A stretch of DNA of 63,650 bases, the filler included, from Aduncisulcus paluster (taxonomy: Eukaryota): assembly GCA_024181965.1 (NCBI GenBank). It is 14 parts of 14 records of this genome, joined end to end, with 100 filler letters (N's around TTAATTAATTAA, not from the genome) between each part and the next. Parts side by side here need not be neighbours in the genome. Positions count along the whole stretch, not along the records: positions 28,617 to 41,605 come from BQXS01011532.1; 13 more parts are not named here. One strand, written 5' to 3'. The position numbers and the translations under genes are program-made. Positions 10,312 through 49,740 of the stretch are shown one piece after another; the first letter of the stretch is position 1, and each line of letters opens with the position of its first letter. The notes beneath the pieces were generated by a model that was given only the letters and a program-made list of their open reading frames with translations, was not told the DNA's origin and ran no database searches.

Positions 10312-10411
10312 NNNNNNNNNNNNNNNNNNNNNNNNNNNNNNNNNNNNNNNNNNNNTTAATTAATTAANNNNNNNNNNNNNNNNNNNNNNNNNNNNNNNNN
10401 NNNNNNNNNNN

Positions 10412-15335: not shown

Positions 15336-15435
15336 NNNNNNNNNNNNNNNNNNNNNNNNNNNNNNNNNNNNNNNNNNNNTTAATTAATTAANNNNNNNNN
15401 NNNNNNNNNNNNNNNNNNNNNNNNNNNNNNNNNNN

Positions 15436-19895: not shown

Positions 19896-20803
19896 TAGCC
19901 CCTCTCTTCTCTCACCAAATAATTCCCACTCCACTAAACCCATTAAACAACGATAATGGCTTGTTAACAACGAAACGACAATATTTGTCAAGGGATTTTA
20001 CTGAAAAGAAAATGAAAATGGAGGAAACGAGCGAAGGAAAATCTATAGGAAAATCCAGTAAGAAAATAGGACCATATCAAACAAAGAAACTCCCCAAAAA
20101 AGATTTAACAATGCAGCAAAAGAAAAAAACGAGGATTTGTCAAGGGATTTTACTGAAAAGAAAATGAAAATGGAGGAAACGAGCGAAGGAAAATCTATAG
20201 GAAAATCCAGTAAAAATATCACATCAAAAACCTCATCTAAAANNNNNNNNNNNNNNNNNNNNNNNNNNNNNNNNNNNNNNNNNNNNTTAATTAATTAANN
20301 NNNNNNNNNNNNNNNNNNNNNNNNNNNNNNNNNNNNNNNNNNATATGTATGTCTGTATTGAGTTTTATGGTGGTTTTAATGATATGTGATATTATTCTGG
20401 CTCACATTCTCATCCTCTTGTTCTTTGATCCTTTCATCAGGAAGTTATCTGAGGTATATTTTACTGTGGGTTTGACAAATGTCATTGAAAATAGAGTTTA
20501 ACTAGCCCAGATATGGAATGTATGATATAGATTGAGTCCAAATAGAAATATGGTTCTTTCAAGGTTTGATTAGATTCAGAGATATCTCCATGGAAAAGGT
20601 TACAACATCCTAAACTGTGCTAGAATTAATAGTAAATCATCAGACCATAATCGAAGGGAAAGAGACAATGATATATCTTCCATTAAAATGATATCTACAC
20701 AGCTAAATATAACCCTTTACCAAATAAATATGATATGGTTGTATAATAAATTGAGATATAATTCAATAAAATCACATGAATAATCATATGAATATTTTAC
20801 AAA

Positions 20804-22768
20804 CTATTTATCCTCGATCTTGAAGAAACTTATTCTCTTCTGATTCAGACCACGGATACCAATGGCAGAGCTGTCGGCTAGCCATTGGGGTGACCGAAGT
20901 CCAATTCCAGGCCCGAAAGGTCTCTCAATCCTTAGAACAACCTTACAGTCGTCAACATTGACAATATCTACAGTACAATTTGTCTTATCTATGGCCAGAT
21001 ATTTACCATTCGGACTCAAGGATACTGACTGGGGCTCGAAAGGTTCAGGAAGTGGGACAGAAGCTCTGAATATGAGAGGATTATCAATAGAATCTGAATC
21101 AATATCTTTTTCATCGGCAATCTCAAAGATCGTGATACAATTTCTCTTCTCAATAAGAACAGTTCTAGTGTATTTATAGACAGGAACAATCTTTGTCTTA
21201 TGTTTCTTTTCAGAACTCTTTGCAGAAATCTCCTCTTCTTCTTTCTCCTTCTTGCTGGCATCTTTTTTACGATCATGTTTGCCTGGTTTTTCTATCTCTT
21301 TCTCTCCAACAAGCTCTGAAATAACACACATGTTACGAATCTTACCGTCACATGAACATACCTTGGAGATATTCAAGGGGAAAGTAGTATCTCTTGGAGG
21401 AGCTTTAGACAGGGATGCCTTCTTCTCGGCAACAGCAGATTCTGTTTCTGTAGCACGCTCGGCACGACGAGCCTGTTCCTCTGCTTCTTTAAGCTTAGCA
21501 GCCTCTTCTTCCTTGCGAAGCTTCTTCTCTCGCTTCAGACGATCTTTTCGTTGTTCTTTTGTCTCATGTCTCACTTTCTTCTCTTGTCCGTCAACAATAA
21601 TCGTGTCTTTCTTCAGTTCTTTCTCGGTGCACATGACTAACTGGCTGTAATCCCCACAAGAGAGACTCAGACAACTTCCACAGTTTCCACTGAGATTCTG
21701 GACCTTGGAGCCACTCACGGAATGCTCACTCAGATCATTGTTTGTGCGAGTAGACACATGGAAGACCTCAATGGAATCGTTGGACATGACGACGGCCACA
21801 CAGACGCTGGACAGAGCAAGAGGAGATGTGGAGGAGAGGAAAGTGGTTGTACTTCCTGGGAAAAGCTCATCAGGGGAGATGGATGAGGATGGGATGGAAG
21901 AGGCAAGAGCATCAGCAACAATGGCATCATTAATCTCTTCTTTAGTCCTTTCTTTCCTCAAGGGGGCCACACCACTCAACTTAAGATAAATGGCACCGAT
22001 GGGGGCAGCATACTCCTTAAGAATCTTGAAGGAAACATCTTTTGTGATTTGTATGATCACAATCATCTTACCACCACCAATGATAGCAGCAAGAATGTCT
22101 CGAGAGAGGAAGATGACTTGTTTGGGATCCTGACGAGGACCACTAAGAGCCAAAGAACGATGTGTTTTAATTCCTTTTGAAGAAAGGTCTCGAGCATCGG
22201 CAAGACGGATCTCAGAGTGGGTACATAACACAATTCGAGAAGGAGTCGTTTCGAGTGAAGTGGGAGCGTGGGGCCAGATGTCATAACCTAAAACGGGTTC
22301 AACCATACCCTTAAACTGGTAGGATGGAGTTGAAATGCTGGGTGGAGGAGGAACTCGAGAAGGAACAGGAATACTATCTTCAGAATCTTCTGTCTCTAAT
22401 CCAGCTTTAATACGTTCTTGTTTCTCTGCCAAACGTTTTCTTCTTTCTCTTCTTCTTTGAGTTTCTTTCCTGCTCTGTTCCCTTTTAGCTTTGGCTTGTT
22501 GAGTACTTCCGACAAAACACATAACAAGNNNNNNNNNNNNNNNNNNNNTACTATCTTCAGAATCTTCTGTCTCTAATCCAGCTTTAATACGTTCTTGTTT
22601 CTCTGCCAAACGTTTTCTTCTTTCTCTTCTTCTTTGAGTTTCTTTCCTGCTCTGTTCCCTTTTAGCTTTGGCTTGTTGAGTACTTCCGACAAAACACATA
22701 ACAAGTAAAAACAACCCCACAGCAGCTGTCGTTGTGGATAAAAATAATACATGTTTCTCTATTTCCAT
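20804..22768 (-). CDS. Membrane-anchored WD40 protein, TBL2-like
   Basis: An N-terminal TM helix is followed by a charged segment. IRLADARDLSSKGIKTHRSLAL and the C-terminal SVSLSPNGKYLAI...RISFFKI resemble TBL2 WD repeats. It contains a 157-bp duplication (22372-22528 / 22549-22705) around a 20-N gap. Confidence 0.55.
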   Translation of the reverse strand: MEIEKHVLFLSTTTAAVGLFLLVMCFVGSTQQAKAKREQSRKETQRRRERRKRLAEKQERIKAGLETEDSEDSXXXXXXXLVMCFVGSTQQAKAKREQSRKETQRRRERRKRLAEKQERIKAGLETEDSEDSIPVPSRVPPPPSISTPSYQFKGMVEPVLGYDIWPHAPTSLETTPSRIVLCTHSEIRLADARDLSSKGIKTHRSLALSGPRQDPKQVIFLSRDILAAIIGGGKMIVIIQITKDVSFKILKEYAAPIGAIYLKLSGVAPLRKERTKEEINDAIVADALASSIPSSSISPDELFPGSTTTFLSSTSPLALSSVCVAVVMSNDSIEVFHVSTRTNNDLSEHSVSGSKVQNLSGNCGSCLSLSCGDYSQLVMCTEKELKKDTIIVDGQEKKVRHETKEQRKDRLKREKKLRKEEEAAKLKEAEEQARRAERATETESAVAEKKASLSKAPPRDTTFPLNISKVCSCDGKIRNMCVISELVGEKEIEKPGKHDRKKDASKKEKEEEEISAKSSEKKHKTKIVPVYKYTRTVLIEKRNCITIFEIADEKDIDSDSIDNPLIFRASVPLPEPFEPQSVSLSPNGKYLAIDKTNCTVDIVNVDDCKVVLRIERPFGPGIGLRSPQWLADSSAIGIRGLNQKRISFFKIEDK

Positions 22769-22956
22769 ATTTTGTCCGTAGATTTAAGAGGGGTCCTCTC
22801 AATAACAAGAAAATTAAGAATTTATTCTTTGTTCTGAATCATTGAAAAGATGGGTTCAAAATATATAGGATATGGATAAACCTGATTTTTTAGATCATGA
22901 AATTGATTAATTTATTCACAAAAAACTTGAAATGTCATGAAGTCACGTTGCACAAA

Positions 22957-23643
22957 TTACTTCGAAAATTGAAGAGGGACATCGTCTTCCATCTCAATAC
23001 TCCAATATTTATAATATTGATGCTTCCGAATACAGTACATGTCTTCCATTTCAGGCCGGAAAGAAGAAAACTCATCACCAATTTTGAATAAAGGTAATAC
23101 CGGAGTAATGGATGAAATATATGCTGCAGATATCTTTGAAAATACTAAAATATGAGATGATAATTGCTTTGTCCTTGATATTGAACATTCCAAAAAACAA
23201 ACTGAACTACTGATCATTGGAAGACTTAATTGACCTTTTATGATATCTACTGAGTGTTTTTGAAGATCTTCAGGAGAAAATAACCATTTTTTCTGCAATT
23301 CCAACATTAATGAGCGTTGGTGTTGACCTACAACATTCACAGCGAATTTAGATATTTTTTTCTCCCTAAGTTTTGAATATTGTTCACATGTTAGACAAAT
23401 CATAATATATGGCGGTCTTCCCGAACAAAAACTCCATGATGTAACGGGAAGTATAATCAGTTGATTAGGTGAATGTATTGAAAAGGCTGAGATCATAAGC
23501 ATTGTTTTTGGAAATAGAGATAATGCTTCACCCAATTCAAGGCGTTTTAATGGACGGAACATCCGGATGGAACTCCAATCAAAATCTCCGATATCATCAA
23601 CTCTTTCGTCGGAGGAATGGCTTGATGATTCTTCATCACACAT
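22957..23643 (-). CDS. Flavin reductase-like (FMN split-barrel) domain protein
   Basis: PVTSWSFCSGRPPYIMICL, FAVNVVGQHQ and PMISSSVCFLECSI...SHILVFSKI match the Flavin_Reduct pattern (S.EPP.V.V, F.VNVL, P.L......LEC.V......DH.L). Confidence 0.75.
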   Translation of the reverse strand: MCDEESSSHSSDERVDDIGDFDWSSIRMFRPLKRLELGEALSLFPKTMLMISAFSIHSPNQLIILPVTSWSFCSGRPPYIMICLTCEQYSKLREKKISKFAVNVVGQHQRSLMLELQKKWLFSPEDLQKHSVDIIKGQLSLPMISSSVCFLECSISRTKQLSSHILVFSKISAAYISSITPVLPLFKIGDEFSSFRPEMEDMYCIRKHQYYKYWSIEMEDDVPLQFSK

Positions 23644-23964
23644 TATAATATTTAATTATTTGTTCCACTGGCAAGTGACCATTTGATTGGGAGAAGGACA
23701 GCTTCCGCGGAAACTCCGAATTGACGACTTGTCACCATCACGAGATATGAGACACTTTTCCAAAATAAATGGGAAGCTGTTACATCTATTTTATAGCATT
23801 ATATTACTATTTCTGATTCTTATTTCGAAATATAAAATTCTTTGAAAGCAAAAACTGAATTTGGCTGAAATAGGAGAGGTGGGTGCATTATTTGCCTCAA
23901 TTATAATCTATTTTTGCTTATTTATTGTATTTAATTATTTTTGTCCTTAAATTAGTGTTGGAAA

Positions 23965-25343
23965 ATGTCGGAAATGACAATAGTTAGAACAAAGTATCTT
24001 GGCGGAATGATTGCTAAGATTACAAAGCGAAAGATGAAAAATCCATTTGAAATGTTGATGTGGTATTACAATAATCTCCATTTAGTTCCTCATGTGATCC
24101 GAGATATCTTTGATAAAGACAAAAATCCTGATCTCTGTGAACCAGATCCACCTCCAAAACCCCGGCCCAAAGTTGTTAGAAAGCCGGGAGCAAATCAGAA
24201 TAGACGTAAGAAACGTAGGAAGAAGAAACATTCTGCCTTTTCTTTATCTCCAAAAACCAAGAAGGAAACCAAGAAATCTAAGTCCTCAAAAACCGCTGGT
24301 GATGAGCTCTATCAGGAAGAAGAATCCTATGAGGAGGAAGAATTGTTCCCATTCCGTGTTGTTGAAGTTCCTCGACCTGAATCTGATCTTCTAATCCCCT
24401 CCATCCCTTCTCTTAAGCCTTCCTCAGTATACGAGCCTGGTCTATTCCATCTTCCCTCTTCCTTGTGGCTATATCACTCCCTCTCACATCCTCAGCGTCT
24501 CATGGAGTACTATGAAGACCTCTGTGCATGTGGCTGTGAGTGTCCTTGTGGAGGTTATTATGAAAGTGAATGTTTCTGCCCGGAATCTATCAATGCAAAA
24601 CGACACGAAGAAGAGGAAAAGGAGCAGATAGAGAGTGGAGATGAAGCCTCTGATGAAGATACGGCTATTAATGATTCAGGGGAAAAGGATAAGAAAGAGG
24701 TTGAACCTCTTACATCTATAAATATCTCTATTGAGAAACTTGAGAAAAGACCTACGAGAAAAGCGGCAAGTCATAATACTCTTCAATTTCAGGATTGGGA
24801 GGATGAAGAAGAAGAAGAAGAAGAAGAAGAAAGAAGATTAAAAACAGATTTGTCTTCTCCTTCCACAAGGTTAGCTGCAACAAAACGAGAGCAGAAATGT
24901 TCTGGTTTGTGTGGGAGGTGGAAAAAGATATATAAAGAACAGCTTGAAGAAGAGTATATTAACGTCCAACAGGAAAAGAGAAGGAGGATGAAAGTTTCCT
25001 CCAAAAAGGTCCCTGTTAAAAAGGTCCCTGTTAAAAAGGTCCCTGTTAAAAAGGGGCGTAAGAAATGGTTATCCATGAAATTCGATGAAGAGGAGAAAGG
25101 ACCTCGTAGGAGCAAACGCTTAGGGCATAACGATTGGGAAGAAGAAGAAGAAGAAGAAGAAGGAGAGCTGAATGAAGGTATTGGAAAGGAGAAAAAAGAA
25201 GAGGGAGAAGGAGAAGAGGAAGATTATTCATATTTATCTGTTGAAATGTTTGCCAAGAGGAAAGAAGCTGAAGAATTATCATTGGTTCGAAAATATGTTC
25301 CATCTGTCTTCAATCTCTCTTCTTTCCACTTAAACGATGAGGA
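23965..25343 (+). CDS. Hypothetical charged protein with a Cys cluster, 3'-partial
   Basis: ATG-started ORF that runs into the linker. It contains CACGCECPCGGYYESECFC and (AAAAAGGTCCCTGTT)x3 = KKVPV at 25003-25047. Confidence 0.7.
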
Positions 25344-25443
25344 NNNNNNNNNNNNNNNNNNNNNNNNNNNNNNNNNNNNNNNNNNNNTTAATTAATTAAN
25401 NNNNNNNNNNNNNNNNNNNNNNNNNNNNNNNNNNNNNNNNNNN

Positions 25444-26454
25444 CATAAAGAAGGTAGAGTTAGCAAAAGAGAGGCCTCAGCCCAATCCCTGTATTCTTCA
25501 GATTCTACGATTATCACAGAGAGTAGCACTGATTCTCCTCGAACGGTTACAACTTCCTCCACAGCATCCACGACCTCTGTTGCTGCCTCCACGACCTCTG
25601 GCTCCATTATGCGTTCTGTATCTGATGAGTCCATTACAGTTCTCCCCTCTGTATCTCCATCCACATCCCCCCTCCCAAGTCCCTCAGACTCTCTCTCTTC
25701 CTCTTCCTCTTCCTCGAGTGACCATGTTGCAAAAGACTCATCCTCTTCCTCCCTTTCCTCCTCCTCCTCTTCTTCTTGTAAACAACACCGTCACCGTCAT
25801 CGTCACTCTCACTCTCACTCTCATTCTCATGACGATGCCTCTGAAGGAAAAGATCTGAGTGGTCACTCTCATCGCCACAAAAAGGGCTCTCATGTCAAAC
25901 GTCGAAAGGTCCATAAAGAAGGTAGAGTTAGCAAAAGAGAGGCCTCAGCCCAATCCCTGTATTCTTCAGATTCTACGATTATCACAGAGAGTAGCACTGA
26001 TTCTCCTCGAACGGTTACAACTTCCTCCACAGCATCCACGACCTCTGTTGCTGCCTCCACGACCTCTGGCTCCATTATGCGTTCTGTATCTGATGAGTCC
26101 ATTACAGTTCTCCCCTCTGTATCTCCATCCACATCCCCCCTCCCAAGTCCCTCAGACTCTCTCTCTTCCTCTTCCTCTTCCTCTTCATGCGAGTTTGACT
26201 CCTGTACATCGAATTCAGCCCGTGGTGCTGGTGCATCTAGTCCCCATGTCTCCATTCCTTTCTCCCCAAGCTCTGTGAAGGCCGTCCTCACAACCCTGTT
26301 TGGAGGAGACCATAAGTTGGCACATTTGATTGTTGAGAAAGAGGGAGAGAAGAGCATGTTGCTGGTGTTTGATAAGGAAAAGAGAGAAGCTTTAAGAAGG
26401 AGGTTAACGGCATCATCTGGTGTGGAGTCTCTGTGCTCAAATCAATCAGAGTGA
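25444..26454 (+). CDS. C-terminal part of a Ser/His-rich protein, 5'-partial
   Basis: The frame is open from the contig start. About 270 bp (25444-25714) is repeated at 25912-26182. Confidence 0.6.
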   Translation, partial: HKEGRVSKREASAQSLYSSDSTIITESSTDSPRTVTTSSTASTTSVAASTTSGSIMRSVSDESITVLPSVSPSTSPLPSPSDSLSSSSSSSSDHVAKDSSSSSLSSSSSSSCKQHRHRHRHSHSHSHSHDDASEGKDLSGHSHRHKKGSHVKRRKVHKEGRVSKREASAQSLYSSDSTIITESSTDSPRTVTTSSTASTTSVAASTTSGSIMRSVSDESITVLPSVSPSTSPLPSPSDSLSSSSSSSSCEFDSCTSNSARGAGASSPHVSIPFSPSSVKAVLTTLFGGDHKLAHLIVEKEGEKSMLLVFDKEKREALRRRLTASSGVESLCSNQSE

Positions 26455-28450: not shown

Positions 28451-28616
28451 CCTTAGTTATAAGAATAAAACCAATCTTAGTGTAATATACCTTATATTAT
28501 ATCATATTTTTATTATNNNNNNNNNNNNNNNNNNNNNNNNNNNNNNNNNNNNNNNNNNNNTTAATTAATTAANNNNNNNNNNNNNNNNNNNNNNNNNNNN
28601 NNNNNNNNNNNNNNNN

Positions 28617-31600
28617 TTCAAAAGTTTTTCCACACAGTTCTTCCGTGGAAAGTAGTGACCGGAATACCTGAAGATACATGTGGGCTTCCTACATCTTCTA
28701 TTTATATTTGTAGTTCCATTAGTTCGGAATCTGAACTTATTAAACATATTGAACAGATGAAAATAAGTTTCCATGATTATAAAGAGCGTGATGAATTAGA
28801 TGGTATATCATGGATCGAAGATAATGATGATTTTCATGATAGATGTCCCTATGGCAGAGCATTGTCCTTAGCTTTAGCCAAATTGATAGGAAAATTCAAT
28901 GTTTTAACGGAAGGATTAGATTATATGAAACAAAAGGAATTGATTGAACGTCTTGTCGTGCCATGTCCGTATTGTATGTGTGGTTGTCCTCTGTGTTCTC
29001 AAAGTTCTTCTTCACAATGTTCTATTTCTACAACAATATCTACTCGCTATAAAGCTGTAAATCTATCCAATTCATCGAGTGCTTCTTGTTCATTTTTTTC
29101 CTTTGCATCTCAATCAAGTTCCTCTGTCCCTTCCTTGCTTCCTCTCCATCCATGTCTGCACGCTTTGTCCTCGCCTCCTTTATCAACATTATTGTGCACA
29201 ATAGCCCGCAAGAAATCAATTCCTTTCCTAGCGTCTCTCCTTTGTGCTACTTCTATTGTTGTAAGAGCTGATGCTTGTCCCAAGTTGTGTGTATCTCTCA
29301 GTACTGGAATGGTAACTCCGATGTGGTTACAAGTTTCTGGCTCTCCTGTTGGGATACGATCTTGGAAGGAACGAAAGAAGAAGGAATCGCTACTATTTTC
29401 ATCTCACTCTTGTTCCGATGGTATTTATGGGAAACGAAGATGGCAAGGGAAATGGATGGAACTTCCAGTTATTAAAAGGACGAGTAATATTAAATTCCCA
29501 GTCTTTTCGTCATCTTTTGATACCCCTGGAATGGAAAGGATGGATCAATCACAACCAAGAACTCCAAGATCATTGGGTTCTAATCCACTGACCTCCGCAT
29601 CATTTCCGCTCCCATTGAACTCATTACATTCAAATCCAGGGCATCTTTCATCGAATCAAGGTCGAAGTTCCCTTGATATTCCCCTCTCAGCTTCTATTCA
29701 TCAATCCTCCTCAAAACACGTTCATCACCATCGGTTTGTATCCTTAAAAATGCACACTAAATATACTCCCTCTCATCAACCCTTTTTTTCTCAGATATGT
29801 CACGTTTCGATCCCTTACGTTGTTGCCTCTCTGAATGTGAATTTGAAACATCACAAAGTTGTGTGTGATACTCTTGCTAAATGTTTAAAACAGTGTAAAT
29901 TTTGGGATTGTCATGGAGATATCATTCCTCTATCGTCCAGAACATCCTTCAAATATACTAAAAGAAATGAATATCTCGATTATACGAAATCTCATTCCCT
30001 TGAATGGAGAATTCTCTCATGTGCTCTTGAAGTTCAGTCTTATCGATCATGCTGTATGTCTAAGCGATCAATCACTCCAAATAATGCAGCTAAAGTTATC
30101 CTATTTGTCCTTCCTTATGTCTGTCAAATCAAAGAACTTTTTGGAGAAGCCAATGTTGCAAAGATTCGGCAAGCAATCAAGCAATTTATCTGTGGTCGTG
30201 ATTTAATGTGTGTTTCATGCGTCTGTTCCTCGCTCTTGCTCTCAAAAGTTCCTTGGCGTACATACTCTTCTCGTCAAGGGAGGCTCCAACTTGAGTCTTC
30301 TGTGTTCGATACATGTGTCATTGTCTGTGAGTTCTTTTTTGCTTTTATTCTACAGTCCTTATGTTCTCTCCTGTTCCACATTTTCCCTTCGACCACGAAT
30401 CCTCTACTCTTTCCGAGGATGTCCTGGAACGCCCAAGTTAGAATTTTTGAGAAAAAATCAATTCCCAAGAAAGACGATTCCTTGCCTCCTTCGGCTCTTC
30501 TTCCGGTGGAAAGAGTGGCCAGAAATAAGAAAGAATTGGAATCTGCTCCAAACAAGGGGTCAACCTCAACTATTCTTGAGCATAATCGAGGTGGAGTTCT
30601 TCGCTCTTCTCGTGGTCGAGGAAAAGTTGAAAATAACGCTCACCCACATTCATCCCAACTCTTGACATCTTTCCTCCCTTCTTCACTCTCTTTCTCATCT
30701 CCCACGCCCCCTTCTCGGCCAGTGTTCCCTGCTCTTTCCGATATCAGAACACCCGGAAGAACAATGGCAACAGAAGTGTCTTCAAAGATATCATCTTCGC
30801 TAAATTATATTCCCGATGCCAGCTTTCGTGTTGTATTCATTCCANNNNNNNNNNNNNNNNNNNNGGGGTCAACCTCAACTATTCTTGAGCATAATCGAGG
30901 TGGAGTTCTTCGCTCTTCTCGTGGTCGAGGAAAAGTTGAAAATAACGCTCACCCACATTCATCCCAACTCTTGACATCTTTCCTCCCTTCTTCACTCTCT
31001 TTCTCATCTCCCACGCCCCCTTCTCGGCCAGTGTTCCCTGCTCTTTCCGATATCAGAACACCCGGAAGAACAATGGCAACAGAAGTGTCTTCAAAGATAT
31101 CATCTTCGCTAAATTATATTCCCGATGCCAGCTTTCGTGTTGTATTCATTCCAAAACGTGGCGACGGGAGGAAAGGAAGACCGATATTTCTTCCTATTCA
31201 AAAGAAAACAACCAAGCATGGAGCATCGAGCAATTCGTCTATAAATCCCACCAAAAATCGTGAAGTTGATATGCAATATGCCGTAGGATGTCTGCGGAGT
31301 GCTATAAATCATAGCGATGGGAGCGGTGCGGCTGTGCCATCTCGAAGATATGCCTTGGATGCACTAAGAAAACTTAAACAGGATACAAGGGCCCAATCTT
31401 CTTCTTCTTTTCCTGAATATTATGGGTTTTCGGCTGATGTTGCTGCTGCCTTCGACTCACTATCCCAAGCCGTGATAAAACGCCGTGTAAAGTTATTGTT
31501 TGCCTCTTTAAATCGATTCTTTGAGAGTAATCATTGTGGCCTTGTGCAAATGGGAAGATGTTGGAATCAAGAAGGTGAGTGCAAATCTGTTCGAAAAAGT

Positions 31601-33799
31601 GTGGTGCTTCCTTGTTCCCCCGTTGACGGTATTGATATTCCTTCGCATGGTGTGCCTGATCCTGGTCAAGTTGGGAAAAGGAGACATATTGAAGCCCATT
31701 CATTTTCACCACATTTGTGTGATCCAAAACCATTGAAACGAAGCAAAACTCTTGCAAAACCCAAGAAAAGTACAAAAGATAAATTCATTCCTTTCCCTTC
31801 ACCCTCGAAATATAAATTATTGACTTCTTCCAAAAAGGATGAAGATTTACAACATTCCTCTTTTTCTTCGCAAAACGATATTGATTTGATGATCCATTCG
31901 ACACCCGTAGCTTTTTTAGGTTCACAACTTATTGCTGTCCCCAGAGGAATTCGTTCAATTTCCACCCAAACAAGAGGATATTCACCTCATTCTTCCTTTC
32001 AGAATTTCAAAAGTATCTCTGAAGTTCGAGATTTTGTGCTGCGAATGGTGTGTTCACCTGTGGTACGGATGCCTGTTCCTATCCGTTGCTCAATTTTTCC
32101 TTCAATCCAACCCAACCCACCATCACAGTCATCTGAACATTCATCTTCTCAACCATCTAAAAATAGATCATCTGAAGATGATTCACGGCCTCAAATAATC
32201 ACTACTTCGAGTGCTTTCATGGTTAGAGGTGTTCCTCAAGGGGCATCTATTTCTTCTTTATTATGTACTCACACTCTAAGCTCTGTTGATAGATTTGTAT
32301 GTGAATCGGAAAACAATGATTTTGAAAGCAATCAATTGGCACTTCCATCTGATCAATCTCCTTTTCCATTGAAATCTGGTATTCAATGTGGTTCTGGCGT
32401 CTTGATTCGTTATGTCGATGATTATTTATATATGACAACTCAAAATGAGAAAGTTCGGATTGTATATGATAAAATTAGAAAATATTTGGCACAGGAAGGT
32501 CTTCAATCAAACGATAGCAAGACTCAGTTCTCTGATCAATCCTGTCATACGTCCAGGGATGTTCAACATGATTCTGCCCACTCCTCTAGTGCTTCATTCA
32601 TCACTTGGTGTAAAATCAGAATCCTTCTCCCTGCTCTAATTATAGCTCACGATCCTACTGTTTTGTTAAGTGAAGACAGAGCCATGTTTGATGAGTTCTT
32701 CAGTGGTGGTATCGGAATTTCTTCTCACTCAATCTTGCCTGCTGTCGGTCGTAAGTTCGTTTCGAAGGATATCCTCCATCAAGAAAGACGTAAAAGACAT
32801 GCTTCCATTATCAGAGATGAGATACTTGGGAAAATTGGAATGGGATTGTTGGATGATATTGGAACAATGCAACATCAACATCCGACAACTGGTGCCATTA
32901 CAGATCATCGAATGCAATCAAAGGGGTCAAATTCTTCGGTTGGAAGTTCGGAAGAAATGACCAAAGTTAATGTTCTTCGTAGTATTTCTTCACAGTTCAC
33001 CAGAATTCCTCTTTCTTCTAGTTTTCAGCATGTAATTCGGACTCCTGCCCAGGAGTTGGAGAACAACATTGAAAAACAACTGAACAGAAGGATAAATACT
33101 CTATGTTTGTGCCAATCGGACCGGTTGGCGACGATATTGTCTTGTCTATCGAACATGTCCTTATCGTGTACCAGTGTATTTGTGTGTACAATCTGCCATT
33201 GTTCTTCGCTCCCATTCATTAATTTCTCCTTCCTTCGAAAGCTCATGTTGTTTGTTATTGGTCGTATGGCAGAGAAAATATGTAAAACAACCCGCTTGAG
33301 ATTTACCCATGATTCCTTCAAATGGGAAGAATGGGCAAATAATCTCTCAGAAATCGGAGGGAAATTGCCTCCTTTTCCTCCATGTTGCCAAACAAATAAG
33401 TCCACATCTTCAAGAGATGGGAATTCATTGCATTTATCATTATCTCACACTTATTATAGCTGCGTATATTGTCTTGTTCCGGCTATTGCAAGGTGTGTAG
33501 GGGCACATTTTAGGAATTGGGCAACAAAAAGAATGCCAAAGAATCACAAAACCAAAAAATCATCGACGAACCCAAAGTCTCATATATTTCGGATATTTCA
33601 GATTGCGAAGTGTCTTCAGGGTGTTTCTTCTCAAATTAGGAGTATGCATAATGCTCAGAATTATTGTCGGGAAAGGGATGGATTATTTTATTCGAGTTGT
33701 AGGAGAAAGACGAGAGGAAAACATTTAAAGTGGATTAAACAGGTTTGTTGTCTTTGCGAGATCAATTGTCGAATGTATTTGAAGGAATTGCATAGTTAA
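28617..33799 (+). CDS. TERT: Telomerase reverse transcriptase (5' end probably cut by the contig edge)
   Basis: Motifs occur in canonical order. TEN/GQ: QKELIERLV and WLQVSGSPV (about 29330). QFP-like: LFGEANVAKIRQAIKQFI...VPW. Degenerate T motif: LFHIFPSTTNPLLFPRMSW (about 30370-30427). Motif 1 FRVVFIPK, motif 2 GRPI, A YYGFSADVAAAFDSL (Asp 31436), B' GVPQGASISSLLC (32228), C LIRYVDDYLYMT (32411), D GLQSNDSKT, E FITWC (32606), then a C-terminal extension. Confidence 0.93.
30556..31153 (+). repeat. 289-bp exact duplication flanking a 20-N scaffold gap inside TERT (artefact)
   Basis: 30556-30844 equals 30865-31153. The offset is 309 nt (103 codons), so the frame is kept. Confidence 0.9.
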
Positions 33800-34234
33800 T
33801 TATTTTTATTGTATGCAGTATTATTTGATTCAATGGCAATCGTAAGAGTATAGTATACTTGGAATTCACATTTGATGAGTCAAGTTCTCATTATGCTGAA
33901 AATATAGCAGTTTAACGGGGGACAAACAGATATTTTATTAGTGACAATGTCAAATCACTCAAGATAAAGGAATTAGACCTGAATCCTGAGCTTTTAAAAG
34001 TCAGTTGTAACATTGCACAATCAACTACAAAAAAAAAAAAAAAAAAAAAAAATCAAGGAAAACAGCTTGTTAGCCAGATGCCCATGAGTGATGTTACTCA
34101 TGTGTTACAGTATGAGAAAGAAGTAATACTAACCAAGGAAAATATGAGTGGAGAAATAGTGTTCGTTTCATTGTTCGAGTGTGTCACACGTGTGAGGCAA
34201 TAAAGATAAGAATCATGTTGTCAAACCTTTTTCA

Positions 34235-34285
34235 ATGTGGGATATAGTCATAATCATCATGTGGGGATATAGTCATAATCATCAT
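34235..34285. repeat. Tandem duplication of about 25 bp
   Basis: (AT)GTGGG(G)ATATAGTCATAATCATCAT occurs twice. Confidence 0.85.
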
Positions 34286-35486
34286 ACAATCCAAATTGAT
34301 CTCCAAGTTGGAGACTCCAACAATTGTTTGTTCTTGCTGAATCTGAGTTGGTTTGTTATGTTCTAGATAAGGAAATAAATTATCCATTGATTGCCATGTA
34401 TACACTGTACTTCAAGAACTTGGATGGAATCACACTGCAACTAGAACAAGAAATATTCAGAGAAGAGGGAAAAAATCAATAAAACGAGATTTTAAAAAAA
34501 TAAAAAAAAATAAAAACCTACAAAATATCCATAATAGAATCCGTAAAATAATAATAAAAGTAGCAATAAAATCAAAAATCATTACATTTGATACCTAAAT
34601 GGTCCACAAAAAAAGCACTAATGATTTGAAGGAGTCAAAATAACGTATTTTAAAACCATTGTTTATCGCAAATATTTGCAATATGAATATGAATTGTGAA
34701 TGGATAATAGGGAAATATTTCAGACAGAGTGATTAAGATCTGCAGAAAGAAGATATACATAAATACTACAATTACAGTATAAATGGACAGATTATTCATA
34801 TTATCTCATAATAAAAATAACAATTATTTAAAATTCATGTTATTAAAAAAATAATTATAAAAATAAAAAGAAAAATAAATAAAAAAATAATAAAAGAAAT
34901 GTTATGCAACAAATGATCACAAGTTCAGAATAGTGCAAAAGGACAGTTGTAAACTATGATCATATCCAAATTTCTTTCTCATAATATCGTTTTTAAATGT
35001 TTTTTAAAAGGGTGGCAATATTGCAGTTGAGGAAGTTAAATAGAACAGTACAGTAGTATAAATACTATTATCATTATTCATATTCAACAACATTCTCAAA
35101 ACCTAAAAATAGAATACATTATTATTTCATGTTGAAACATCATAATTCTCAGCTCTCATATGGCATTTGAAGAGAATGAAAAATGTTAACATTGATTAGT
35201 ACAGCAAAAATAGAAAAATCAAATATAAAAAAAGATACAATAAAGTATCGGAACCTAAAAATAAATACCTCGTAAAAATCCGGTATGGGGAAATCCCACA
35301 AAACCTCATTATTCAGAAAAATTTCACTATAAATAGGAATAATATATATAACAAAAATAATTAAATAATAAATAAATAAATAAAAAGTAAGAGATATTAG
35401 AAATTAAATTTTCAAATTATAATGCAACATCGATGATATTAGATCCCAACTCAGTTGGGATTGTGACAAAATTGATTCTAATTTCC

Positions 35487-38400
35487 TTATACAGCGTTCA
35501 GGACGATGCACAATCCAAGGAGGAGAGCAAAGAATAGAATAACAAAGTAACATCCAGCCTTATCATATCCGTCAATGAATTGTTTGCACCCTTCAATGTC
35601 TTCAGGGCATCCCTCAAAAGTACAGAAACTAACCATTCCATTATTTGAAGACTTTCTCAACGTTTCACAGAACCGAGTGTCATCTTCTGAATCGCTAGAC
35701 TCATCAAAAGTACACAAAAGATCCCCTAATGACCAGATGTGAGATATTTCGTACACGCTAAGCTCAATATCACATACTGTTTCATAGTCAAGGGTTGAAG
35801 AGGAAGAAGAGGAAGAATCTGTGATGTTTGAGGTACATAGATCTTCATCCGGATAGTCAGTGATGATCACAGCAAGAGTGTTTGTGTGGGTATCTTGGAA
35901 AAATAGGAACTCTGGGGTTACTTCATTGGAAGCAACACAGTCTGAGGATAGTTGACCACTTAGGAAAGGCTGAGTGATCGTTTCTCCGCCAATACTGAGA
36001 GATGTGGACTCGACGAGGGCATCTGTGTTCAAGTAATACTCAGATTGTATTGAACCAGAGTATGGGCAATAGACGTCGTGAGCAATGAACACATTATTAT
36101 CAAGAAGAGCATTCCCAACCCCCGGGGATAGATCAAAAATAAACTTTGATTCCCCATCCTCAACAGAACTGATTACTTTAGAGAATTGGATGCTGTGTGT
36201 GATAAATAGAACTTCACCACTCGAGGAGAGTATGTAGCACTCAATGTTGCTCTCAGCACAGACTGTCTCATTGAGAGCTTGATTCACAATGGTGGTCGTT
36301 ATCATTGACACTGAACTGTATCGAACAACTTCATTGAGCTGGGCTGAGGCATTTGTAGGGTTGTCAACCTCAACAATGATAGGACTAATGATCGTAAAGA
36401 CGGGAATGGCAGCGGGATAGATCATGAACAAAGAAGCAAATATGTAATCGGCATTAGAATACCCCATTCCCAGAGATTGTTGGAAGTATCCTCGTTCAGC
36501 AATATTCAGGGAATAGCCAAGTGGGGGATATAAATAGAAATAGAGGATAGAAAGGTATGGATCGATCAATCCGTTGGCATACACAACAGTCTTCTTGGCC
36601 TCTGAAGAACCATATTCATAGGTCCAATAGTAAGAATACATTGAAGCAAATCTCACGGATGCAAGCTCACCATCAGTTCCATATGTTTGAGATGAGGGAT
36701 CTCCATTGAAGTAATTGGAAATATCTTGGGCCAGTTCAACTGTAATTTCATCCTGAGATGTGATTCCTAACCGTTGCATCGTGGTCTCGTCCTCAAGGAA
36801 GAATTCAACACCATTGTAAACCATAGTATCAGATGCAAACAGAGTATAATCAGATGAAATGGCCTTGTATCCAAGCAAAGAGAGATCCTCATCATCAAGA
36901 TGGTCAACAGTACTGAACTCTGTCGGATAATAACATGCCTCTTTGCTTGTTAGAGGACTATATTCAGTTCCAGAGTAAGAAGAATCGTATTGAGTTGGGT
37001 AATTAGTATCACACACGTTCGTCATGATTGTGTCTGTGATGTCAATGACATCTCTTGAACCCAAGCTGACAACAAAAATGAACCCACTTTCTTCTCGAAA
37101 TGTCCAATGATACTCAACAGAAATGGGATATACAGAGGAAATATCGTTGTGAGTCTGTCGTAGAACAATAGCAGACACCACGCCATCATCGACATGGTCC
37201 TCAAGGATGGAATCAAGGATAAGCTCTGAGAAAGTGAGTGCGCCATCGTCGCAAGACGAACATGACAAAATAACTTCAAGTTCATCAATGGAAGCTGCTG
37301 TTGAACTCTTACCAGATGATGTCAAAGCAGAGTGAGCAAGCAATGCACCATCAATGTTAAACATCATATAGTATGAATATCTCTCCAACAAGAACATGTT
37401 ATCGAACACAGAGCCATACATGTTCATAATGTAGGACTCGTCAGTGCCATCGATATACACAGGATCCTGGTAGAGCGCTCTTTCTACCTGATTCAAGGCA
37501 ATGTAGGTCATAATATAGCCCACAATCTCCAGATCAGCATTAAACAGTGCTTTTGACACAGTCAGAGCAGAGTTACCAATGACAGGATCTCGGGTGGAAG
37601 AGAAAGCCATTGGCATGGCCGAAGTTAGAAACTCATGGTTAGTGGAACAGTTCTCAATATCGGCAGCATCAGACAACGAGCATCGAACATTGATGAAAGT
37701 CTTGAACAGGAAAGAGATATCAATCTTTCTAAGCTCACTTAACGTGTCCCTGACAACCGCTGACAATCCCAAGAGTTGACTCCACGCGATGATATCTTGG
37801 TCACACGTGGTGGAAGAGGAAAGACTTGAGCATAACGTTTCCCCGAATGTAAGATACTCGGAACCATATGCAGGGATATAGATAAGGCCTCCTTCAGAGG
37901 CTTCTTTGACGTCGATTCGTAGAACAGCACCTCTCATGTCACGGAAATTGGACATAATGGTGTCAATCTGAGAAACATTATGACGGAGAGCTGCAAGTTG
38001 GGTACGATCAGAGGAAATAAGGGATGGTTTCTTTGAAGTGGAGCTATTAATAGAATTCTGAGAAGAAGAATAAGACGTGGTTATTTCATAACCTCCATAT
38101 CCATCCAATAGCGCGCGCTGTGTATCTAAATATATCCACACCGGTAAAATTGGTGCGCCAGAAATAGATGCAAACTGTTTTTTCAGCCAGATGAGGAAAT
38201 ACGGGTGCGGAGTAGCTCCAAGACTCATAAATACAATGGACAGCGGTGATCCCTTTGCCAACGGTCTTGCGGATGCGTTCAAAGAATCTCTCTCAACCCT
38301 TGAAGCGTGAGATACAGTTGCTATCTTCTCAGTAAGGATGTCGGAGAGCATGATGGAAGGTTCGACTGCGGATCTGAGGAGTTTCATGGCAAGGGAAGTT

Positions 38401-39788
38401 GCTGAGAACATTGGATTGTTCTCTTCTGCATATGCAGCATTCGAGGAGGAAGAATCTTCCACAATATGCCCACTCGAAGTGAGCTCATCATACGTCAGAG
38501 TTCCAAAGTATTTCTTAACGTTAGAAATAAGTTTTGTTTGGGCCTCAACCGTCATCTTTGAGAGTCCACCGGTTCGTTTTGTGCTTGTGGCTTGACCATA
38601 ACATGTCTTTGCGGCAGTCGACGACTCCGGGAATAAGTGTCCACGCCATTCACCAGATGTGTCTACGACAGCCAGGTAAGTGTTCTCATCCAAAGAAGAG
38701 ATATATTCGCTCAGAGAGGCCAGAAGTCCTGTAAGTAGCTGAGAATAGGTTATCTGAGAAAGTATATAAGCCGAGGAAGAGGAGCTGGATGAATTGTTGT
38801 ATGTCGACAGAGTGGTGGCCAGTGCACTCTTTGAGAAAATATTACTTCCTAACTCATGAGAGAGCAGGGAGTACACAGTCTTATCAATGGTGGTATCGAG
38901 AACGATTACAACACCTCTGCGCAATCCAAATGAGTTGGCGGACAGAATACCAGGCTCATTCATGGGTTCTCTTGTCATGCGGTCCTTGATGGACACAGAT
39001 GTGTCCATAGATGTGGAGCCAGAGTAGATTCCAGGCCATGTGAATTCAAGACCACCGGAAGTGATTATACGTTGAAAACCAGTAAATTGATTGGTTATCT
39101 TCTCGTTATTTCCATTTGGGGAATTGAAACCGTTCAAAAAGGTCTTTAATCCGCCTAAAGTGGAATCATAGTCAGACGCGACAGTTTGTTCAATTGCACT
39201 TGCAAGAGCATACTCCTTTGTGATCAGAGACGATGACGATGTATTTATAGAACTTTGAGAAGAATTATAAGAATGGGGAATGAAAAAACTCATGCTTTCA
39301 TATGTCATTTGGTACCATTCATCAGAAGTGCCAATAAATTGTTCTGGAATATCTTCCCGGGAAATCGTTTGAACATCCGAATCAAAAGGGAGGGTAGAAT
39401 CGGCGGCAAAGGAAGATAGATCAATTGAATTGGTTTCTTCATTAAGAGAAGTTATTTGATGCAGGGAGGTTGAAATAGCATCAGCAATAGTGGAAGTATA
39501 TGTTTCCGCGTCTTCAATGACATCTTCGAGAAATTCTCCAACTGAATCAATGAGAGAATTGGCGTATGGGGCTCTATCGATGGAGGGAGCTGTAGATAGA
39601 TACACAGTCTTGAAAGAATCTGTAGGAACGGCAGTTTCAGCAATAGAATCTGTGAAAAAAAGAAATGTATCCAAAAAGGAACTCATCTTATCATCACTTG
39701 TGAGAGCATACGCGGTGGAAACAATTGCGGCAACAAAAAGAGAAATATAAAAAATAAAGAACGAAAAATAGTTGGAAGTACCTTGCAT
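35487..39788 (-). CDS. Alpha2delta/CACHD1-like VWA + Cache domain membrane-anchored protein
   Basis: Signal-like N-terminus (FFIFYISLFVAAIVSTAYA) and VWA start GVVIVLDTT. Cache-like motifs RDPVIGNSALTVSKALF...IVGYI, YYMMFNIDGALLAH, NIAERGYFQQS and ECYILSSSGEVLF. Cys-rich end and hydrophobic C-terminus. Confidence 0.75.
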   Translation of the reverse strand: MQGTSNYFSFFIFYISLFVAAIVSTAYALTSDDKMSSFLDTFLFFTDSIAETAVPTDSFKTVYLSTAPSIDRAPYANSLIDSVGEFLEDVIEDAETYTSTIADAISTSLHQITSLNEETNSIDLSSFAADSTLPFDSDVQTISREDIPEQFIGTSDEWYQMTYESMSFFIPHSYNSSQSSINTSSSSLITKEYALASAIEQTVASDYDSTLGGLKTFLNGFNSPNGNNEKITNQFTGFQRIITSGGLEFTWPGIYSGSTSMDTSVSIKDRMTREPMNEPGILSANSFGLRRGVVIVLDTTIDKTVYSLLSHELGSNIFSKSALATTLSTYNNSSSSSSSAYILSQITYSQLLTGLLASLSEYISSLDENTYLAVVDTSGEWRGHLFPESSTAAKTCYGQATSTKRTGGLSKMTVEAQTKLISNVKKYFGTLTYDELTSSGHIVEDSSSSNAAYAEENNPMFSATSLAMKLLRSAVEPSIMLSDILTEKIATVSHASRVERDSLNASARPLAKGSPLSIVFMSLGATPHPYFLIWLKKQFASISGAPILPVWIYLDTQRALLDGYGGYEITTSYSSSQNSINSSTSKKPSLISSDRTQLAALRHNVSQIDTIMSNFRDMRGAVLRIDVKEASEGGLIYIPAYGSEYLTFGETLCSSLSSSTTCDQDIIAWSQLLGLSAVVRDTLSELRKIDISFLFKTFINVRCSLSDAADIENCSTNHEFLTSAMPMAFSSTRDPVIGNSALTVSKALFNADLEIVGYIMTYIALNQVERALYQDPVYIDGTDESYIMNMYGSVFDNMFLLERYSYYMMFNIDGALLAHSALTSSGKSSTAASIDELEVILSCSSCDDGALTFSELILDSILEDHVDDGVVSAIVLRQTHNDISSVYPISVEYHWTFREESGFIFVVSLGSRDVIDITDTIMTNVCDTNYPTQYDSSYSGTEYSPLTSKEACYYPTEFSTVDHLDDEDLSLLGYKAISSDYTLFASDTMVYNGVEFFLEDETTMQRLGITSQDEITVELAQDISNYFNGDPSSQTYGTDGELASVRFASMYSYYWTYEYGSSEAKKTVVYANGLIDPYLSILYFYLYPPLGYSLNIAERGYFQQSLGMGYSNADYIFASLFMIYPAAIPVFTIISPIIVEVDNPTNASAQLNEVVRYSSVSMITTTIVNQALNETVCAESNIECYILSSSGEVLFITHSIQFSKVISSVEDGESKFIFDLSPGVGNALLDNNVFIAHDVYCPYSGSIQSEYYLNTDALVESTSLSIGGETITQPFLSGQLSSDCVASNEVTPEFLFFQDTHTNTLAVIITDYPDEDLCTSNITDSSSSSSSTLDYETVCDIELSVYEISHIWSLGDLLCTFDESSDSEDDTRFCETLRKSSNNGMVSFCTFEGCPEDIEGCKQFIDGYDKAGCYFVILFFALLLGLCIVLNAV

Positions 39789-40072
39789 TGCACACAAAAA
39801 TGGGAAAAAAACTGTTACTATCCAGATAGCAAGCAAATTGAACTAAAATTGATGATCTCTTGAATTTACGAATATTATCCACAATTTCCGGACAAAGATG
39901 TTAATATTCCTACTATTTATTATTTGTGACTATAAATTTAAACATATATCAAAACTTTTATAATAGAACCGACAATCAGACCATACAGGATAATATAGGG
40001 CAATAATTCTTCAAATGCCCCATATTATATAGTTATATGGGTGCATATATTACCAATATTATATTATTATCC

Positions 40073-41605
40073 TCACCATATTTCAGGAATTACCCCCAAT
40101 TCATCATCATCACTTTCTTCTCTTTTCCACTCAACCTTTTCTTCTCCAATACTTCCACCAGCTCCATCCCATACAAGATATATAGGAGATATATACTGAC
40201 TGGATCTAGGCAAAGGACATGGGGAAAAAGGGAAGAAGAGAGAAAAAGTATATTCCGGCGAAGTGCATGATTGGTTTCCTGATTGTCCACCCAGTCCAAT
40301 CAAGCTGGATGAAAGAGCTTCAGGCCCCCTCTCTTCATCATCTATTCCAATTCCTGCCATGAACTTCATCTTATTCCACACAGATTCTTTCCTTCTCTCC
40401 TCTTCCCTTCTCTGTGATATTACGTGTCCAATGTCACACACGTCATATCGGTGAAGAAGCTTGGCAAACTCGGAGACGACATCAAGTTGCACAATATCCA
40501 AGGATCTCAAGCCACACCCGAACACACACATACATGCATCAGCATCATCCCCAAAGTACAGCAGCTGTCCATCTTCGACAAAATCTCTCCAGCGAAAGCA
40601 TATGATGTACATGATCATGCACACGCAACAATAGTAGATGGGACGTCTCGAGAGATATGAAGCGCGGGAAGACATCGATAGGGGACCCGAGTGTACGAAG
40701 CCAGAGATAGCATCTTCTAGAGCCTCCATCTTATCGCCATCACTTGAGAGAATCCTTACCTGAGCCGCTGTGAATATGTCGATGGCTGCACTGCCCTGTG
40801 CTTGCTGCTTGTGCCTCATATCCCACATTCCACGCACATAAGTCTTGCACCACCGAATGAGGAGACCAATGCACTCCTTCAGTAAGGTCACAGGGGAGAA
40901 CATGGAACGTGAAAGGAAGGAGGCAAGGTATGAAGCAGCAACGATACGGATACCAGTGTCTGATGAAGATGTCACAGAACTAGATGAAGCAAAGGGAAGA
41001 AGAAGAGGAAGAGGAGGAAGAGGAGGAGGAAGTTGAACCTGAAGTTAAAAATAGTCTGAGAAAGTGAGAAGTTAGTTTCCTTGAGAAAGATGGGTGCAAG
41101 GATGATATGAAGAAGAGTAAGAATGGTGTGTAAGCGAGGGAAGGAGAGTGCAAGAGCAATGAAGACACAGATAGAATAGACTTGAATAGAGAGGCTAGGG
41201 GCTGGGATGGAGGCGTGGATGAAGTGGATGAAAGATGGGGGAAAGAGGTTGAACGAGGCATGGATATGCCACTGCTGGCCATTCCAGACAACGAGGGTGA
41301 GGAGGAGTACGATGGAGTGTCGCTGGTACTAAGACGAGCAAATGCAGCAGCTACAACGGTTGCAGCAGGGATTGGTGCACTGGAAAGTGATGGAGATGAT
41401 CGAGCACTCGTGATAATTGATCCACCTCTGCTCTCTGACTTTGCACACGATACATTCAACATCATGTCAAACATTCCTGATAAGTAAACATCCATGATCT
41501 CAAGGGTCTGCTGAGACTTCTTGTACGCAAGGGATGGCATGGAGGAGGAGGAGGAGGAGGAGAAGGGCTGGCCTAGACTCCCAGCACTGAGCACAGAGCC
41601 AAGGT
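40073..41605 (-). CDS. RRN3: RNA polymerase I initiation factor RRN3 (TIF-IA), 5'-partial, with a frameshift near 40990-41030
   Basis: RIVAASYLASFLSRS...LLKECIGLLIRWCKTY, YYCCVCMIMYIICFRWRD and FFPFSPCPLPRSSQYISPIYLVW match RRN3 C-terminal blocks. The upstream ORF carries AYTPFLLFFISSL...F. Confidence 0.85.
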
Positions 41606-42075
41606 NNNNNNNNNNNNNNNNNNNNNNNNNNNNNNNNNNNNNNNNNNNNTTAATTAATTAANNNNNNNNNNNNNNNNNNNNNNNNNNNNNNNNNNNNNNN
41701 NNNNNATAATCACACAAATTTGGGCAAACGCAACCCAGGTGCCGATATGAAAGAAATAAATTGGACATACAATTTAGTGGGAAAATGCTTAGGATTCAAA
41801 ACTTCTTGGATTTCCCTTTCAATTTCACCAATCTTGTCAAGCAATTCTATATTCATTATGAAGGGGAAAAATCTTTAATAAGTTTCGAATATGTTTAAAA
41901 TCACAAAGAAAGAGACGTTTTGATTTTGAATCACGATCCAAAGGCGAATACACCATTATAAATTAGATAATTATATTCCTTTATTCATTTTTAAACATAA
42001 TATCATATTTGATGGACGATTTCATTTTCCACTAAGATGGAAGATTCTTTTCCTTTATATTGATGGATTCGATTG

Positions 42076-47078: not shown

Positions 47079-47180
47079 TANNNNNNNNNNNNNNNNNNNN
47101 NNNNNNNNNNNNNNNNNNNNNNNNTTAATTAATTAANNNNNNNNNNNNNNNNNNNNNNNNNNNNNNNNNNNNNNNNNNNN

Positions 47181-47435
47181 AAAAATTATGTGCAGACGTT
47201 GTTACAGAGAGAAAGCTTCAACTGATGGTATGTTAAAAAGATTGCTTTTATTGTTTCATTTATGTTATGTTTAGATCATTTTTTAAAATAATATTCATCT
47301 AATTATTTCCTTACTCGTCCAATAGAATACAAAAAAATGGGACTTGCTGTTGGAGTAGGAGTTTTAAGTATTGGTGTTGCTGGAATGATTATTAAGATGA
47401 TAGCCATTCCTGTTAGGAAAACCATTGGATTTTAG
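47181..47435 (+). CDS. SEC61G: Sec61 gamma subunit: end of exon 1, intron 47228-47325, exon 2 47326-47435
   Basis: Splicing GTATGT...AATAG gives ...IMCRRCYREKASTDEYKKMGLAVGVGVLSIGVAGMIIKMIAIPVRKTIGF, matching Sec61g ([40 protein letters not shown]). Confidence 0.88.
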
Positions 47436-47515
47436 GGTGTTTATTTCCATTTTCAGTAAATATTGATCTGTTAATCTCAATTTTTAATTTGTTTTTGCTT
47501 TTGGGGCCAATTTAG

Positions 47516-49640: not shown

Positions 49641-49740
49641 NNNNNNNNNNNNNNNNNNNNNNNNNNNNNNNNNNNNNNNNNNNNTTAATTAATTAANNNN
49701 NNNNNNNNNNNNNNNNNNNNNNNNNNNNNNNNNNNNNNNN

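Follow-up and report, generated by a model that had tools for sequence, protein, structure and literature searches.

We analysed a 63,650-base stretch of DNA from Aduncisulcus paluster, in the following called the window, and take one of its open reading frames (ORFs), with good confidence, to be the gene of the telomerase reverse transcriptase (TERT) of this organism, a very fast-evolving orthologue of approximately 1,490-1,620 residues. An earlier reading made from the sequence alone (the sequence-only reading) had proposed a four-domain TERT in a probable free-living fornicate. A. paluster is indeed a free-living fornicate (PMC9933649). Concerning the four domains, the reverse transcriptase (RT) domain as well as the QFP part of the RNA-binding domain (TRBD) passed statistical controls, while the N-terminal TEN domain was seen at the level of a motif only and the thumb, or C-terminal extension (CTE), was not detected. 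New here are the repaired gene model and the upstream half that is shown to belong to it; the C-terminal half of the protein is already named in GenBank.

The window consists of 14 separate contigs (2.4-13 kb) joined by N44-TTAATTAATTAA-N44 spacers. Because it is not one stretch of the genome, any ORF or feature that runs across a spacer is artificial. The contig with the TERT candidate occupies positions 28617-41605 (12,989 bp). According to the genome announcement the underlying assembly was made with MaSuRCA, has a G+C content of 39.1% and was annotated using Braker2, InterProScan and BLASTP (PMC9933649).

The C-terminal half of the frame (C half) matched the Pfam family RVT_1 with an E-value of 2e-09 and 37.9 bits, compared to a cut-off of 29.6. 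RT motifs 1, 2, A, B', C, D and E aligned in this order to an RT profile of TERTs, just as the sequence-only reading had listed them. A joint alignment showed conservation of all of P, D, D, Q, D, D, K and W, with the catalytic Asp triad intact. Using hhalign, the C half scored higher with the TERT RT profile (84.2, E 1e-9) than with one made from seven bacterial RTs (62.5). The slice from motif 1 to A scored 33.3 and that from B' to E 58.2 against the TERT profile, and for neither slice did any of 40 shuffled sequences score as high.

Between motifs A and B' the frame contains a long insertion. The distance from the Asp of motif A to the Gln of motif B' is 267 aa, compared to 116-177 aa in 11 TERTs and 47-54 aa in six bacterial RTs. 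The insertion is TERT-like by position and size, being longer than in the references, and sequence likeness within it is not part of this assignment. A further expansion is found ahead of the RT core, where about 134 low-complexity residues separate the Trp at the position of the T motif from motif 1, compared to about 30 in the reference TERTs. Downstream of motif E approximately 290 residues follow, which from their place in the chain would form the thumb. These C-terminal residues had no detectable similarity to the reference thumb (score 13.3, matched by 29 of 40 shuffles).

The reference for the TERT-specific domains was obtained by scanning metagenomes with a degenerate T-motif pattern, [FY]YxTE-x9-[FY][FY]RKxxW. 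The scan provided at least 118 loci (L007-L124), with an in-frame T motif in all 118. Pfam Telomerase_RBD (PF12009) was present in each of the 19 long ORFs scanned, many of which also contained RVT_1, TERT_C or TEN_TERT, and in none of 14 control genomes. From these sequences profiles were built for the TRBD (19 and 40 sequences), for the RT domain together with the C-terminal extension (11) and for the TEN domain (10 and 11). The reference set is biased to TERTs with a canonical T motif. As an observation in its own right, many of the metagenome TERT loci had an in-frame TAA or TAG inside the T motif (e.g. FYCTEK*KEYS...; loci L013, L027-L029, L042, L056, L057, L064, L066, L076, L081, L090, L097, L104 and L113), which is expected under ciliate-type codes, where such stops encode Gln.

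The N-terminal half (N half) matched the TRBD profiles best with residues 505-551, which aligned to the profile's QFP block. This match scored 27.9 (hhalign P 0.002-0.006), 28.5 with a second hhalign implementation and 29.0 with the 40-sequence profile. None of the controls reached the real score: 150 shuffles of the 286-aa candidate region gave a mean of 14.0 and a maximum of 21.9, 100 shuffles against the 40-sequence profile a mean of 13.9 and a maximum of 21.4, and 51 native tiles taken from 20 other ORFs in the window a mean of 12.4 and a maximum of 16.7. The QFP-like block of the sequence-only reading was thus recovered well above shuffled as well as native sequence. This block is the sole TERT-specific domain segment that passed a test, and a TRBD is supported through it only.

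In a permissive alignment the match was colinear from the position of the CP motif through QFP to the position of the T motif. Canonical TERTs have FYxTE...YYRKxxW at the latter position, whereas A. paluster has FHIFP...FPRMSW, such that F...R..W is kept. A canonical T motif is absent from the recognisable sequence, and the motif has presumably degenerated. A T-motif-like string located 5' of the QFP block (FKYTK...YLDYTK) was rejected, since 31 of 80 shuffles scored as high and it was out of order.

For the TEN domain, N residues 1-340 matched the TEN profile best, in local alignment, where MWLQVSGSPVGIR falls on the YiQlxGxPl of the references. The pattern Q[LVI][CSATI]G.[PHSNL][LVIAT], derived from the GQ motifs of 11 TERTs, had a single match in the N half, at this WLQVSGSPV site, and was found in 158 of 20,000 shuffled versions of the N half. 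Extending the pattern by an aromatic residue in front reduced this to one of 20,000, a figure for which Trp had been allowed at that place after the fact. The motif lies 345 aa before the T position, within the range of 259-563 aa spanned by the references. When trimmed to a block of 56 columns the TEN match scored 14.6, equalled by 15 of 150 shuffles, and the helices ahead of the motif aligned plausibly and colinearly. The GQ motif that had been named WLQVSGSP lies at the expected place, whereas the domain around it did not stand out, as the TEN profile score was reached by 30 of 150 shuffles for the full region and by 15 of 150 for the trimmed block. The GQ motif, and nothing beyond it, makes a TEN domain within the N-terminal ~290 residues a suggestive assignment; the N terminus of this region is truncated by the end of the contig. 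The Ser/Pro-rich linker that follows was predicted to be without secondary structure in a low-confidence AlphaFold2 model.

The reading frame required a repair in its middle. The 289 nt at 30556-30844 are repeated exactly at 30865-31153, with 20 N (30845-30864) in between. Repeat and gap together comprise 309 nt and are in frame, and dropping either 309-nt stretch restores the true sequence. The duplicated stretch belongs to the low-complexity linker between the T position and motif 1. The Logan contigs X1 (5354 nt) and X2 (7093 nt), each from a public run, both omit exactly 309 nt by joining 30555 to 30865, and have no other differences from the window over 28617-34016. Since these two other assemblies give the joined form, the duplication is an assembly artefact, as had been suspected from the sequence. 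X2 is possibly the source data of the assembly, such that X1 and X2 are not fully independent. After the deletion 1,623 codons remain, in line with the earlier estimate of an uninterrupted ORF of more than 1600 aa. A second 20-N gap in the window, at 22529-22548 (contig 20343-25343), lies between two identical 157-nt copies (contig positions 2030-2186 and 2207-2363), inside an ORF at 20804-22768 on the minus strand. Here the assembler introduced the same artefact as it did in the TERT gene.

From stop to stop the frame extends over 28565..33799 on the plus strand (1744 codons) and begins within a spacer. Because real sequence begins only at 28617, the frame is open at the 5' edge of the contig. 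None of the window's other 13 contigs had an overlap that would extend this end. X1 and X2 continue 228 and 2001 nt past it, so the missing 5' sequence is present in public contigs. The in-frame codon-usage score was positive over the whole frame and approximately 0 after ~33100. This makes the 3' end of the frame its least certain portion; considering also the intron and stop of the GenBank model, the final ~100 codons may be non-coding.

In GenBank the C-terminal part of the protein is deposited as GKT13678.1, "Telomerase reverse transcriptase like protein, partial" [Aduncisulcus paluster], with 888 aa. It originates from the same contig and is 100% identical to the frame over 30866-33496. 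The expectation that the gene could be annotated as hypothetical was therefore wrong for the RT half. The deposited model begins at the gap, within the duplicated linker, and is without the 742 upstream codons that carry the GQ and QFP blocks. At its end it has an 11-aa second exon after a 206-nt intron, whereas the frame described here is also open straight across 33497-33702 and reads through to 33799. With the GenBank 3' model the gene would comprise 1,534 codons, compared to 1,623 for the read-through frame. The intron sequence is present in both X1 and X2, though neither is shown to be RNA. A word-based homologue search with the C half returned GKT13678.1 only, and with the N-terminal 742 codons no protein at all (8000 candidates of near length and 6917 of longer lengths). 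Of 124 metagenome stretches matched with the B'-E region, none was a relative. In practical terms this yields a corrected gene model: what is deposited is the back half of the protein only, and the RNA-binding domain and probably TEN belong to a front half located upstream of a scaffold gap, which is bridged cleanly by public contigs.

Several results weigh against the assignment as TERT. The sequence-only reading had proposed profile searches for the TRBD and TEN domains; in Pfam there was no match to TEN_TERT (PF11474), Telomerase_RBD (PF12009) or TERT_C/TERT_thumb (PF21399, PF17984), and only the purpose-built TERT profile recovered the TRBD. These Pfam searches, made with the two halves and with five sub-pieces at thresholds up to E ≤ 10, provided only chance matches besides RVT_1. 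Sequence searches of the PDB gave no match at E ≤ 10 for three sub-pieces and none of relevance at E ≤ 1 for the C half. HMMER over 1.84 billion representative proteins returned the protein itself and one RT (P0003, 214 aa, E = 1e-3), and no TERT; Giardia TERT was not among the matches at E ≤ 1e-3. The N half had no neighbours above 0.80 in the Atlas comparison of language-model features. The T motif went undetected (slice score 12.8, equalled by 21 of 80 shuffles), the CP slice with its weak colinear placement scored 13.2 (31 of 80 shuffles), and the TEN score of 15.1 did not stand out from its shuffles. Finally, the score of 84.2 for the C half is only slightly above the range of 13.9-70.7 found for bacterial RTs against the TERT profile, and far lower than the 176-684 of true TERTs in a leave-one-out comparison, values that are inflated by the presence of the T motif in the slices.

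The leading alternative is that the gene encodes another eukaryotic RT, i.e. a Penelope-like or non-long-terminal-repeat (non-LTR) retroelement, possibly without endonuclease, or a domesticated copy of one, whose likeness to TERT reflects shared RT ancestry. We consider this unlikely. In its favour, the only non-self match among the 1.84 billion representatives is a generic bacterial RT, with six loci of relatives that are all bacterial, and the TERT-profile score lies within the upper range reached by bacterial RTs. A tree calculated with IQ-TREE from 11 TERTs, six bacterial RTs and the query (477 columns) contained a canonical TERT clade with support of 96/97 and a bacterial RT clade with 82/83. 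The query was placed between the two with a branch length of 2.0, i.e. outside the TERT clade, in a tree without Penelope-like or long interspersed nuclear element (LINE) sequences. This position would be compatible with a sister of canonical TERTs and equally so with any other eukaryotic RT class. An A24 tract is located 230 nt past the stop, at 34029-34052, where X1 and X2 both end; such a tract is not special, given three other A/T runs of at least 12 in the window (26710, 27245 A22 and 46518 A18).

A retroelement is at odds with the QFP block, which exceeded shuffled and native controls, with the GQ motif upstream at the expected distance and with the TERT-type A-to-B' insertion of 267 aa. 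GIY-YIG, AP-endonuclease, zinc-knuckle and other retroelement domains were not found by Pfam over the whole frame. A second copy was absent from the other 13 contigs (63 kb examined), and the flanking genes are ordinary, e.g. RRN3. For the C half the ten best family-bearing clusters of the Atlas were all TERT, with scores of 0.95-0.90, the best of them sharing 192 of 256 features; the recognition value of 1910 was below the mark of 2300, which makes this weak evidence. Taken together, the QFP block immediately upstream of the RT, the distance-fitting GQ motif, the insertion in the fingers and the Atlas neighbours support TERT over a retroelement, if not cleanly. The same holds for the independent naming in GenBank, the failure to find an endonuclease domain and the ordinary single-gene context. 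Concerning the RT itself, TERT is the best reading.

Somewhat less probable still is a gene that derives from TERT and is no longer a telomerase, i.e. that is decaying or re-purposed while telomeres are kept otherwise. The extreme divergence with no recognisable T motif, the long low-complexity insertions with 14.9% Ser overall, and a weak coding signal over the last ~230 codons are in agreement with decay. A decaying gene would, however, hardly keep 1,623 codons open in DNA of 39% G+C, with in-frame codon usage favoured along almost the whole length and every catalytic residue intact in motifs 1, A, B', C and D. Moreover, the TERT of Giardia is described as lacking the T motif and still being active when assayed by the telomeric repeat amplification protocol (TRAP) (PMC10999387). 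A chimera, in which misassembly at the gap fused an unrelated upstream gene to an RT gene, would explain why the halves meet at a scaffold gap and why GenBank annotates only the downstream one; it is very improbable given the colinearity of X1 and X2 save for the 309-nt skip (one of the runs may be the assembly source) and the TRBD match in the upstream half exactly at its usual place in TERT.

If the gene encodes TERT, the protein would act as follows. The TRBD would hold the telomerase RNA, as for all TERTs. Fingers and palm, which carry motifs 1, 2, A, B', C, D and E, the Asp triad and the large insertion in the fingers, would then copy a short RNA template onto the 3' ends of chromosomes. 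The enzyme is predicted to be active. Telomere-type repeats (TAGGG, TTAGGG and TTAGG, both strands, at least three units) did not occur in the window. AlphaFold2 models from single sequences had a mean predicted local distance difference test score of 38.4 and 35.8 for the two halves, too poor for a fold search.

Coordinates of the TERT candidate, its deposited 3' end, the assembly artefact and the spacers in the window
Feature	Position	Strand	Basis or remark
Whole reading frame	28619..33799	+	1,623 codons after 309-nt artefact removal; TAA stop 33797-33799
First in-frame ATG	28757..28759	+	
TEN-like block ending in GQ-type motif	29153..29353	+	Motif-level match only
GQ-type motif WLQVSGSPV	29324-29350	+	
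Ser/Pro-rich low-complexity linker, TEN-like block to TRBD candidate	29486..29743 (approximate)	+	Translation
QFP block of TRBD, KELFGEANVAKIRQAIKQFICGR...KVPW	30131..30271	+	hhalign against purpose-built TRBD profiles
Remnant at T-motif position, FHIFPSTTNPLLFPRMSW	30374..30427	+	Placed only by extended colinear alignment
Assembly artefact, first copy 30556-30844 + 20 N	30556..30864	.	Second copy 30865-31153
RT motifs 1-2, FRVVFIPKRGDGRKGRPI (FRVVFIPK...GRPI)	31133..31186	+	Profile and joint alignment
RT motif A, YYGFSADVAAAFDSL, catalytic Asp	31418..31462	+	hhalign 33.3; 0/40 shuffles
Insertion at the insertion-in-fingers position of TERT	31463..32221	+	Largely low complexity
RT motif B', VRGVPQGASISSLLC (PQGASISSLLC)	32222..32266	+	Pfam, slice score, alignments
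RT motif C, VLIRYVDDYLYMT (YVDD), catalytic Asp-Asp	32399..32437	+	Pfam and alignments
RT motif D, GLQSNDSKTQF, conserved Lys	32498..32530	+	Alignments
RT motif E, SFITWCKIRI	32594..32623	+	Aligned to WcG of reference TERTs
Presumed C-terminal extension (thumb)	32624..33496	+	Right length and position
Intron of GenBank model (GTAGGG...TTGTAG)	33497..33702	+	GKT13678.1 C-terminus compared to ORF
Exon 2 of GenBank model (EKDERKTFKVD, stop)	33703-33738	+	Stop 33736-33738
Spacers	2424-2523, 5013-5112, 10312-10411, 15336-15435, 20243-20342, 25344-25443, 28517-28616		
Spacers, rest	41606-41705, 47081-47180, 49641-49740, 53232-53331, 55757-55856, 60994-61093		

Elsewhere in the window, the 20 further ORFs that were scanned had eukaryotic content, with ten lacking a Pfam family. 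On the TERT contig, an ORF at 40073-40903 on the minus strand encodes the C-terminal part only of RRN3 (profile 414-555 of 558, E 5.8e-19). The remaining RRN3 gene must lie upstream across an intron or past the contig end at 41605. Adjoining the TERT gene, a 1,433-aa ORF at 35487-39788 on the minus strand had no Pfam family at E ≤ 1e-5. Leucine-rich repeats of the LRR_4 type occurred in five of the 20 ORFs (222-2423, 10412-15253, 16248-19895, 53333-54889 and 61096-63183). The contigs 53332-55756, 61094-63650 and 10412-15335 have DNA segments in common that are 79-96% identical, which is indicative of an expanded family of leucine-rich repeat proteins. The window also contains a DEAD-box helicase ORF and a family B DNA polymerase with exonuclease and polymerase domains (47734-49638, plus strand) that is truncated by the end of its contig.

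Two further repeats concern the assembly. The last 137 nt of contig 55857-60993 (60857-60993) are identical to the first 137 nt of contig 47181-49640 (47181-47317), and due to these identical ends the two contigs are probably immediate neighbours in the genome. Within one contig, 272 nt at 25444-25715 are repeated exactly and in direct orientation at 25912-26183, 468 nt apart; this repeat may be real or another assembly duplication.

A full-text literature search found no paper that pairs Aduncisulcus with telomerase. The 12 papers listed out of 75 for Metamonada, Kipferlia, Carpediemonas and Trichomonas contained no mention of TERT, and the main text of the Carpediemonas genome paper mentions neither telomerase nor TERT. 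The biological interest of a TERT from a free-living relative of Giardia is limited. The case does illustrate that standard profiles (Pfam, PDB and the scan of 1.8 billion proteins) miss the TERT-specific domains of such fast-evolving protists.

Penelope-like elements and their kin are the nearest RT relatives of TERT. With the RTs of Penelope-like and other eukaryotic retroelements the A. paluster protein has the RT core motifs in common; it differs from these in that an endonuclease was not detected and a QFP-type block is present. With canonical TERTs it has the whole order of elements in common, i.e. GQ, linker, QFP, the site of the T motif, motifs 1, 2 and A, an extended insertion, motifs B', C, D and E, and a tail at the C terminus, as well as the residues RPI, PQG..S..LLC, VDD and WC. 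Unlike canonical TERTs, it fails every TERT-specific Pfam model and branches outside the clade of the 11 references.

The closest parallel in lineage is the TERT of Giardia (GL50803_16225), here compared by description only. In the published account, as far as it was available, this protein comprises 960 aa in a single exon, is Ser-rich (10.7%), has TEN, TRBD, RT and CTE domains with just the T motif missing and is TRAP-active (PMC10999387). Going by this description, the two proteins come from fornicates, are Ser-rich and very divergent from those of yeast and human, and combine a catalytically intact RT with no recognisable T motif. The T motif is not indispensable for membership in the TERT family, because by this account the Giardia enzyme is active without it. 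The hope for a more complete metamonad TERT was not borne out: the T motif of A. paluster is equally unrecognisable, and Giardia TERT is already described with four domains. The A. paluster protein is about 1.6 times as long as the described 960 aa and, compared to that description, has extra low-complexity segments of ~100 aa after the TRBD and ~150 aa in the fingers.

As a tentative proposal, which we regard as possible and somewhat short of an even chance, A. paluster would have a working telomerase that lost the T motif as in Giardia and gained spacers of ~100 aa between TRBD and fingers and ~150 aa inside the fingers. A degenerate T motif shared with a free-living fornicate suggests, on the strength of one sequence and a negative result, that the degeneration did not originate in parasitism. 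If this is true, the loss of the T motif and a changed grip on the telomerase RNA would predate the parasitic diplomonads, and would be a trait of fornicates rather than a parasitic reduction.

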